This document shows, piece after piece, positions 12,096-17,820 of a stretch of 64,000 nt of DNA. The first letter of the stretch is position 1, and each line of letters opens with the position of its first letter. Under the pieces are notes generated by a model. It had not been told where the DNA came from. It did not search any database and was given only the letters and a program-made list of their open reading frames with translations. Source of the stretch: an uncultured virus (IMG/VR IMGVR_UViG_3300032560_000010) (Duplodnaviria; Heunggongvirae; Uroviricota; Caudoviricetes); the IMG/VR virus record IMGVR_UViG_3300032560_000010, positions 1 to 64,000 of that record; one strand, given 5' to 3'. The position numbers and the translations under genes were made by a program.

Positions 12096-12169
12096 TGGTA
12101 TCCGAGGGCGGTAACGCTCCACCGTCTATGAATTATCAGTTCATTGCTCTACTTTTGAGCTACACGGAT
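12096..12169 (-). tRNA. tRNA-Ile(GAT)
   Basis: ATGAA CTGATAA TTCAT; atypical T-loop AGCGTTA; ACCA. Confidence 0.85.
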
Positions 12170-17137: not shown

Positions 17138-17228
17138 TGGTGCGCCCGTCGAGACTTGAACTCGAACCAACCCCTAATCTGGGCATCCGGGATATAAATC
17201 CGGTCGTGCTACCTTACACTACAAGCGC
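17138..17228 (-). tRNA. tRNA-Ile(TAT) with long variable arm
   Basis: GCGCTTG/CGGGCGC-A-CCA; CCGGA TTTATAT CCCGG; ~21-nt variable region. Confidence 0.75.
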
Positions 17229-17235
17229 ATTAATT

Positions 17236-17479: not shown

Positions 17480-17567
17480 TGGAGGACATTGTGGGTTCGA
17501 ATCCCACTATGCTCTTTCGAGAACGGATTAAGAGTCCGTTGCTTTCAACCTATTCCGCCATATGTCC
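17480..17567 (-). tRNA. tRNA with CTT (Lys) anticodon on a class II (V-arm) body
   Basis: ACGGA CTCTTAA TCCGT; V-arm CTC GAAA GAG; U73; T-loop ATTCGAA. Confidence 0.8.
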
Positions 17568-17720
17568 ATTTAAATCTCTAATATTTGGTGACGTTCTGCG
17601 TATATGATCACTAAACTTTTCACCATAAATACTTTCTGTTCTTACCCCGTTGATTTTCCACGGCTTACACGCCGTACATCCAGATCGTTGATTTTTACTT
17701 TTACCTCTTTTATGATGCAT
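17550..17720 (-). CDS. small basic CxxC protein; stop inside the tRNA(CTT)
   Basis: MHHKRGKSKNQRSGCTACKPWK; GAGGG RBS. Confidence 0.65.
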   Translation of the reverse strand: MHHKRGKSKNQRSGCTACKPWKINGVRTESIYGEKFSDHIRRTSPNIRDLNGHMAE

Positions 17721-17738
17721 ATTTCCCTCATAAAATAA

Positions 17739-17820
17739 TGGTGCCCTAGGAGGGACTCGAACCCCCATACTCCAATTACGGCGTTGATGACCGCTTAGAA
17801 GGCGGGACCGATACTAGGGC
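17739..17820 (-). tRNA. tRNA-Arg(TCT)-like with missing or relocated D-arm
   Basis: Perfect acceptor and T-arm; CCGC CTTCTAA GCGG; only 8 nt before the anticodon stem and 24 nt after it. Confidence 0.7.

Follow-up and report, generated by a model that had tools for sequence, protein, structure and literature searches.

A phage-borne family of tRNA-Arg and tRNA-Ile genes without a D hairpin at the normal place and with a D-loop-like strand behind the anticodon arm

The window considered here, i.e. the whole stretch of 64,000 nucleotides that was analysed (positions 1 to 64,000 of IMG/VR record IMGVR_UViG_3300032560_000010), comes from a T4-like myovirus, with Gp23 capsid, Gp20 portal, UvsX, UvsW, family-B polymerase and tail sheath being present. 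The source record comprises 73 kb and is estimated to be about 40% complete. ARAGORN deduces 16 tRNAs from the window, all on the minus strand, and Rfam finds 17 on the same strand, including a tRNA-Arg(UCU) gene at 17739–17820 (reading from 17820 to 17739) which is not among the ARAGORN calls and is referred to below as rewired (Table 1). Among the sequencing runs matching this locus, the DNA runs are lake-water metagenomes, and RNA runs match only with a small share. The RNA contigs concerned show short partial matches restricted to 17734–17767 (T-arm and 3' strand of the acceptor stem) and have unlike flanks, hence they come from other organisms.

Several neighbouring elements also deviate from the common picture. 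In the tRNA-Ile(UAU) gene (91 nt), the variable region is enlarged by 18 inserted nt, ugcccagauuagggguug, and these could fold into a short additional arm; tRNAs for Ile do not usually have a long variable arm. Contigs from three RNA/cDNA-library runs are identical over 17138–17233 and then continue into unlike sequence, so this segment is common to other organisms. In the tRNA-Lys(CUU) gene (88 nt), a CUCGAAAGAG hairpin is inserted in the variable region, and the Rfam score is low (31.9 bits). A 72-aa open reading frame overlaps the 3' part of the rewired gene and the start of tRNA-Lys(CUU) and is probably not a gene; its shorter reading from an internal ATG, MHHKRGKSKNQRSGCTACKPW..., falls between the two tRNAs. 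Besides, Rfam assigns a further tRNA (52.4 bits) which is missing from the ARAGORN list and in which, by eye, an anticodon loop CUGAUAA (GAU, Ile) and an atypical T-loop (AGCGUUA) can be recognized.

Table 1. Features of the rewired tRNA-Arg(UCU) gene and of neighbouring elements in the window (A1, alignment of 49 distinct homologues)
Feature	Position	Strand	Remark
Acceptor stem 5' strand GCCCUAG, tRNA positions 1-7	17814..17820	-	pairs with 17743-17749
Junction U8-A9-U10	17811..17813	-	invariant in 49/49 of A1
Cross-anticodon helix, 5' strand CGG+U	17807..17810	-	columns 11-13 pair with 42-40
Anticodon arm CCCGC-CUUCUAA-GCGGU	17790..17806	-	UCU at 17797-17799; top pair is a C.U mismatch
7-nt linker CAUCAAC (CGUUAAY in most members)	17783..17789	-	bulged, from anticodon stem to returning strand
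Cross-anticodon helix, 3' strand G+CCG, putative equivalent of D-stem 5' strand (10-12)	17779..17782	-	pair counts in A1
D-loop-like strand UAAUUGGAGUAU, putatively relocated	17767..17778	-	GG, following A, final U before T-stem
T-arm GGGGG-UUCGAGU-CCCUC	17750..17766	-	canonical T-loop; 99.2% paired in A1
Acceptor stem 3' strand CUAGGGC	17743..17749	-	pair counts in A1
Discriminator A and genome-encoded CCA	17739..17742	-	sequence
tRNA-Ile(UAU)	17138..17228	-	
tRNA-Lys(CUU)	17481..17568	-	
72-aa open reading frame	17550..17768	-	
Rfam tRNA, anticodon GAU by eye	12099..12169	-	

The order of elements that an earlier note, made from the letters alone, had drawn for this locus is matched exactly by the reverse complement of 17739–17820, which reads GCCCTAG-TAT-CGGT-CCCGC-CTTCTAA-GCGGT-CATCAAC-GCCG in its 5' part and TAATTGGAGTAT-GGGGG-TTCGAGT-CCCTC-CTAGGGC-A-CCA in its 3' part (as RNA, GCCG is followed by UAAUUGGAGUAU and then by GGGGG UUCGAGU CCCUC CUAGGGC A CCA). 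Acceptor and anticodon stems are separated by only 7 nt (UAUCGGU), therefore no D hairpin is possible at the normal place, in agreement with the same note, and the hairpin expected between positions 9 and 26 of a four-arm cloverleaf is indeed missing. Instead, CGG+U sits directly 5' of the anticodon stem, at the place of the D-stem 3' strand (positions 23–26). The remaining elements of a tRNA are found, i.e. a 7-bp acceptor stem (GCCCUAG/CUAGGGC) with discriminator A and CCA, an anticodon stem with a 7-nt loop (CUUCUAA) bearing U33 and a purine at position 37, and a 5-bp T-stem with a UUCRAnY loop. The anticodon stem consists of 4 bp plus a C.U mismatch in the window copy and of 5 bp in most members of the family described below. 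In line with this layout, the Rfam model RF00005 only just recognizes the gene at 17742–17820 on the minus strand (32.3 bits at a gathering threshold of 29), with 4 nt standing in for 15 model positions of the D-arm and with 20 additional nt in the variable region. When the window copy is folded as a single sequence, the minimum free energy (MFE) structure differs from the fold proposed here (z = -2.17), hence the evidence that the arrangement is more than chance comes from homologues and not from this copy alone.

The same layout was found by blastn in 13 records of the phage collection, belonging to Streptomyces phages (Yaboi, Enygma, Genie2 and others), Salmonella phage SSBI34 (Vequintavirinae) and the E. 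coli phages Bas93, Bas94, 1-6af, 1-6bf and FH3. Scanning IMG/VR with the D-loop motif fixed gave 42 loci, of which 39 are members and three (L018, L020 and L046) are chance matches. With the D-loop-like strand left free, at least 119 matches were obtained, many of them AT-rich and due to chance but true members as well, and among the matches listed the latter show the variant strands GUAACUGG, GUAAGUGG, GUAAUGG, GUAAGCGG and GUAAAUGG. Both scans contributed to alignment A1, which comprises 49 distinct homologues over 79 columns with the window copy first and for which the descriptor required only acceptor pairing. The window copy shares with the family the UAU junction, a 3-bp helix, a bulged linker and UAAnnGG before the T-stem. 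A covariance model built from A1 (R1) assigns 93 bits to the window copy, a score given by construction as this copy is part of the seed; independent members reach 90–102 bits, and no ordinary tRNA of the same record exceeds 26.7 bits.

Applied to phage Yaboi, R1 picks up the copy already known with 90.4 bits and, at 57.2 and 47.6 bits, two genes lacking annotation whose anticodons are CCU (Arg) and GAU (Ile). In both, the linker has 5 nt (UGAAA) and the strand reads UAAnnGGnnnCAU. Used as blastn queries, these two genes retrieved about 80 Streptomyces phage records and, in addition, the crAss-like Kehishuvirus 'tikkala' of Bacteroides, cr130_1, Microbacterium phage Zooman and a 462-kb uncultured phage. 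In IMG/VR, this short-linker subfamily is represented by at least 111 distinct sequences which all look like members; 99 of them form alignment A2, and together with 54 long-linker sequences they make up 153 distinct parsed members among the matches listed. Thus, isolated carriers are phages of Streptomyces, Microbacterium, E. coli, Salmonella and Bacteroides (crAss-like), accompanied by many IMG/VR contigs. A motif scan over one genome each for 185,579 bacterial and archaeal species gave only four matches, all on contigs of metagenome-assembled genomes (MAGs) and all full-length members (91–98 bits with R1), so the family is essentially viral. The rewired tRNAs form a large family which is restricted to phages and falls into two classes by anticodon, Arg and Ile. 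In three loci (L191, L211 and L217), a tandem pair of rewired tRNAs lies within about 120 nt, for example UAU plus GAU or UCU plus GAU. Genes for homing-type endonucleases adjoin tRNA genes in several cases (HNH and endonuclease VII in L003/L173 (SSBI34), L180 and relatives; segB in T4, L300) and could help to explain the spread of the family across unrelated phages.

The earlier note had predicted that standard tRNA finders would probably take the gene for a pseudogene, and this came out about right, with ARAGORN missing it, Rfam barely passing it and GenBank records misnaming its homologues or leaving them unannotated. For instance, the UCU copy of Yaboi is named tRNA-Val(aac) and a rewired gene of EGole (L179) tRNA-Leu, and two rewired genes of Yaboi (L174:3543-3619 and L174:20005-20081) bear no annotation at all. 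In TomSawyer (L180), Quaran19, JimJam and Enygma, rewired tRNAs are overlaid by coding sequences for an HNH endonuclease or a hypothetical protein, and in many Karimacvirus records by the end of a nucleotidyltransferase gene.

Pairing of the strand preceding the anticodon stem with the GCCG that follows the anticodon arm is strongly supported. In the window copy, CGGT (17810–17807) and GCCG (17782–17779) are complementary as C-G, G-C, G-C and U.G. The scan patterns left all helix positions free except for the G of pair 13-37 in the short-linker scan. In A1, the pairs 11-42 (CG48/UA1), 12-41 (UA31/GC10/AU7/CG1) and 13-40 (CG39/GC5/UA5) are standard in 49 of 49 sequences each. The CGGT/GCCG helix of 4 bp put forward in the earlier note consequently stands with its three inner pairs, for which two, four and three pair types reveal the covariation that had been suggested as a check, but not with the fourth. 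The latter (14-39, U.G in the window) is standard in only 12 of 49 sequences, being mostly A.C (27) or C.A (9); it covaries nevertheless, a pattern that would suit a non-Watson-Crick junction pair like canonical 26.44. In the short-linker alignment A2, the cross-anticodon helix is 100% paired, with CG66/AU24/GC5/UA3 at 11-39, CG65/UA31/AU1/GC1/UG1 at 12-38 and CG97/GC1 at 13-37, the G of the last pair having been fixed by the scan pattern. The cross-anticodon helix thus exists and is under selection.

The other stems behave accordingly. In A1, the acceptor stem is paired in 99.1% of cells with compensatory changes at all seven pairs, and the anticodon stem in 93.9%, pair 15-31 being mismatched in 15 of 49 sequences. 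Over the whole structure, 94.5% of cells are paired, as compared with 34–46% in slid registers and a mean of 64.9% in shuffled alignments, none of 500 shuffles reaching the observed value, although shuffle-based measures on A1 are inflated by related sequences. By mutual information, 12-41 and 13-40 rank among the pairs of the acceptor and anticodon stems. RNAalifold did not predict the 3-bp helix from A1 unaided, leaving columns 8–14 and 32–54 unpaired; as nearest-neighbour energies penalise a 3-bp helix closing a large internal loop, the RNAalifold and MFE results were weighted below the pair counts. Outside the helices, T43, A44, A45, G48, G49, A50, G51, T52, A53 and T54 are invariant in A1, an invariance which for fixed motifs such as GGAGUAU is partly due to ascertainment because members were gathered by motif patterns. 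The linker positions C32, T34, A36 and A37 are likewise invariant in A1, and a 5-nt linker nGAAA takes the place of the 7-nt one in A2, where U8 and A9 do not vary and conservation of U10 amounts to at least 90%.

Considering these alignments, a decayed pseudogene, in which a deletion of the D-arm and an insertion into the variable region would have left a tetramer complementarity arising by chance, can practically be dismissed. The missing ARAGORN call, the Rfam score just over threshold and the C.U mismatch in the anticodon stem would fit decay, but the reading is contradicted by the covariation in A1 and A2, i.e. by compensatory changes in four helices and by invariant loops among 148 distinct aligned homologues from unrelated phages. 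The earlier note had also argued against a decayed gene, which is borne out by the covariation of acceptor, anticodon and T stems and by the spread over very different phages. Equally improbable, to the verge of exclusion, is a class-II-like tRNA with a hairpin in the variable region and a lost D-arm, or the related reading as tRNA-Val(AAC) in which the linker serves as anticodon loop. Such a hairpin can be drawn by eye in the window copy (A37-U52, C38-G51, C40-G49, C41-G48 and G42-U47), and the name tRNA-Val(aac) in the Yaboi record would correspond to the second variant. However, in A1 the pairs 40-49 and 41-48 of this hairpin form in just 5 and 17 of 49 sequences, respectively, without any compensatory change, so the variable-arm hairpin of class II is not supported, and the linker of A2 is no anticodon loop as it has only 5 nt (nGAAA), which contradicts the tRNA-Val(AAC) reading.

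The explanation favoured here is that the locus probably encodes a functional phage tRNA-Arg(UCU) predicted to decode AGA from a scaffold other than the cloverleaf. In this scaffold, the equivalents of canonical positions 10–20, i.e. the 5' strand of the D-stem and the D-loop, would be placed 3' of the anticodon arm. The secondary structure would then be a three-way junction of acceptor stem, T-arm and a long anticodon branch, the latter built from the 3-bp helix (11–13 with 40–42) stacked on the anticodon stem, with the 7-nt linker bulged out on the 3' side, and the cross-anticodon helix would take the place of the D-stem. By this mapping, U8 would correspond to canonical U8, A9 to A21 and U10 to N22, positions 11–13 to 23–25, position 14 to 26 and the anticodon arm to 27–43, while positions 40–42 would represent canonical 10–12 and U43 would be N13, opposite U10. 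The commonest form of pair 13-40, C-G, would thereby correspond to G10-C25. Further downstream, A44 and A45 may stand for A14 and R15, G48 and G49 for G18 and G19, A50 for A20 and U54 for U48, so that UAAnnGG would provide A14, R15, G18 and G19 to the T-loop elbow and the final U would provide U48. The proposed tertiary partners U8, A9, U10, U43, A44, A45, G48, G49 and U54 are all invariant and thus hold no covariation information.

Three new backbone connections would be required, from 8 to 21/22, from 43 to 10 through the bulged linker and from 20 to 48. The residues joined in this way are neighbours in the canonical core, as represented by yeast tRNA-Phe, hence the rewiring appears sterically plausible and would be compatible with an L-shape having a normal elbow. 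Such an L-shape would be acceptable to RNase P, to the CCA enzyme, to EF-Tu and to the ribosome, and ArgRS may accept the RNA through the A20-equivalent base and C35. The GG-containing elbow and the L-shape put forward in the earlier note are well-motivated proposals, being consistent with the invariant GG, the canonical T-loop and the base after GG that is linked to the anticodon.

The closest natural parallels are mitochondrial tRNA-Ser(GCU/AGY) and nematode mitochondrial tRNA-Ser(UCU), which likewise have no D hairpin and in which short connectors flank the anticodon branch (PMC7609411 and PMC10412605, both in part). In an alternative reading, the phage RNA would be a functional D-arm-less tRNA like animal-mitochondrial tRNA-Ser(GCU), with a lengthened anticodon stem, the flexibility and Y-shape of such adaptors and the GG strand acting as a mere connector without elbow. 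The outline is indeed the same, as the 5' connector is short, the 3' connector long and the anticodon stem topped by additional stacked pairs. However, D-arm-less mitochondrial tRNA-Ser retains neither the D-loop/T-loop elbow nor the tertiary core (PMC10412605 and PMC7609411, in part), and for human tRNA-Ser(GCU) loss of the D-loop contact and a diverged T-loop are described (PMC10412605, in part). In contrast, UAAnnGG(A/U) is invariant or nearly so in both phage subfamilies and the T-loop is canonical UUCRAnY, GG and T-loop being invariant or nearly so throughout the 148 aligned sequences, the place of the D-stem is taken by a helix of 3 bp that covaries, and the phage RNAs must work with ordinary bacterial machinery. 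Moreover, the base after GG tracks amino acid identity, which suggests a D-loop-like presentation to the synthetase. An elbow-less adaptor is therefore regarded as improbable.

Amino acid identity is reflected in more than the anticodon. Among the 153 distinct members (matches listed), the Arg anticodons UCU, ACG and CCU occur in 63, 13 and 3 and the Ile anticodons UAU and GAU in 57 and 17 members, respectively, and no other anticodon was found in this set. The base following the relocated GG is A in 79 of 79 Arg-type and U in 73 of 74 Ile-type members, and all 74 Ile-type members bear discriminator A (both among the matches listed). As GGAG was fixed in the long-linker scan, the unbiased figure for the base after GG comes from A2, where the short-linker scan had left it free. 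There, anticodon base 35 and the base after GG are combined as A/U in 72, C/A in 26 and, as the sole exception, A/A in one sequence, which is the strongest covariation outside the helices in this alignment. In E. coli, A20 of the D-loop and C35 constitute the main ArgRS identity set, and A73 is a determinant for Ile. If these rules apply, the relocated strand would be offered to synthetases as a D-loop, and the sequence pattern accordingly suggests that the base after GG is presented as in a normal D-loop.

Codon demand in the window is in line with an Arg tRNA of this specificity. AGA is the commonest Arg codon, accounting for 300 of 692 (43%) in 66 open reading frames of at least 120 aa at a GC content of 34.8%, and among the 17 tRNA genes that Rfam finds in the 73-kb record no other Arg tRNA is seen by ARAGORN or Rfam, although a canonical tRNA-Arg could lie outside the record as this is only about 40% complete. 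Similarly, ARAGORN predicts 10 tRNAs but none for Arg in SSBI34 beside the rewired element, the annotation of Yaboi lists tRNA-Arg(tcg) and (acg) without a decoder of the UCU or CCU type, which are exactly those provided by its rewired genes, and in E. coli phage Bas94 (69.8 kb) the rewired element is the single tRNA match. Altogether, the rewired element is the sole AGA decoder in four phage genomes or records. Judging from these gene contents, supply of an AGA decoder to an AT-rich T4-like phage is the likely role in the source virus. Gap filling is not universal, however, since rewired copies in Zooman and Yaboi are redundant with canonical isoacceptors. In Zooman, the rewired ACG gene is flanked by tRNA-Arg(acg) and (ccg) genes annotated as canonical, and Yaboi carries an annotated canonical tRNA-Ile(gat) besides the rewired GAU gene.

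Not every member carries the CCA end. It is encoded in 33 of 54 long-linker members, and in seven of the 54 (L173 (SSBI34), L007, L014, L026, L035, L052 and L131) CUA, CAA or similar is found instead. In the same seven, leader and trailer pair perfectly for 12–15 bp past the acceptor stem, discriminator included, resulting in a helix of about 20 bp which is absent in the window copy and might serve as a signal for processing or be left over from mobility.

The redundancy in Zooman and Yaboi, the occurrence of the element as the only tRNA-like gene in Bas94 and the seven CCA-less members with leader–trailer pairing could also be understood if the RNA were tRNA-shaped but acted mainly outside translation, for example as a decoy or sponge for host defence nucleases that target tRNAs, with anticodon and elbow as bait, or as another protein-binding RNA. 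Phage tRNAs countering anticodon nucleases are already on record (eLife 2023, PMC10264068; Nature 2024, PMC11464382; both in part). On the other hand, the A20-type and A73-type bases track the anticodon class, CCA is encoded in the window copy and in most long-linker members as given above, an AGA/AGG gap is filled in otherwise broad tRNA sets and AGA leads the Arg codons of the window, which together make a role mainly outside translation unlikely; a decoy role as such would be compatible with decoding.

As a decoding tRNA, the window gene resembles canonical tRNA-Arg(UCU) (T4 tRNA-Arg, E. coli argU; RF00005) in acceptor stem, T-stem, T-loop, CUUCUAA loop, discriminator and CCA, and like the canonical phage genes it is part of a phage tRNA array and is presumed to decode AGA. 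It differs in having the putative equivalents of D-stem 5' strand and D-loop after the anticodon arm and a three-way instead of a four-way junction. The tRNA region of T4 itself, including the stable RNAs rnaC and rnaD, contains no member when searched with R1 with filters off; its best score of 21.4 bits is like that of ordinary tRNAs.

Other departures from the common order of tRNA parts are the circularly permuted and split tRNA genes of the red alga Cyanidioschyzon and of archaea, which are rotations from which RNA processing restores a canonical tRNA. The phage genes have in common with these that the gene order of tRNA parts differs from that of the mature cloverleaf. However, here an internal segment is transposed while the acceptor ends are in their normal places, so neither circularisation nor other RNA processing can restore the canonical order. 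Conserved tRNAs departing from the standard cloverleaf are also represented by allo-tRNAs (8/4, 9/3), tRNA-Sec and tRNA-Pyl. The phage family is 7/5 throughout A1 and A2 and hence shows none of the 8/4, 9/3 or 9/4 arrangements of allo-tRNAs and tRNA-Sec. Some non-canonical tRNAs of the allo-tRNA type were found in phages and metagenomes (Mukai 2016; PMC5389517, in part), but these have altered stem lengths and keep the order acceptor-D-anticodon-variable-T (PMC5389517, in part), whereas it is the order that is altered in the phage family.

To our knowledge, the cloverleaf order acceptor, D, anticodon, variable and T has been taken to hold everywhere except in animal mitochondria. According to one abstract, the known tRNAs of bacteria are all cloverleafs (PMC11551756), and in a review of non-canonical tRNAs (Krahn 2020; PMC7609411), which gave no account of the rewired layout, 'phage', 'virus' and 'permut' do not occur. 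No description of the rewired topology was found in the openly accessible main texts searched. As far as could be found, Arg and Ile tRNAs in which the D element is relocated, making up a class restricted to phages, are undescribed.

A broader proposal, which is put forward only tentatively and is rather less than an even bet, would be that these genes represent a phage-wide tRNA class for Arg and Ile with hundreds of members in phages of at least three bacterial phyla, arisen by a non-circular transposition of the D element that leaves a working L-shape, and that the change in the core is adaptive. With such a core, the tRNAs reading AGA, AGG and AUA might be poor substrates for host enzymes or defence nucleases reading the D-arm or core, so that phage translation would continue when host tRNAs are attacked or limiting.

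With ARAGORN missing the window copy and GenBank entries misnaming members or overlaying them with coding sequences, the family would reveal a blind spot in tRNA annotation. If the proposed reading is true, counts of phage tRNA repertoires and analyses of codon supply would have to be corrected, and a new scaffold for the engineering of orthogonal tRNAs would be available. Isolated carriers are at hand with E. coli phages Bas93 and Bas94, Salmonella phage SSBI34 and many Streptomyces phages. The family would then represent a natural experiment on the connectivity that the translation machinery needs in a tRNA.
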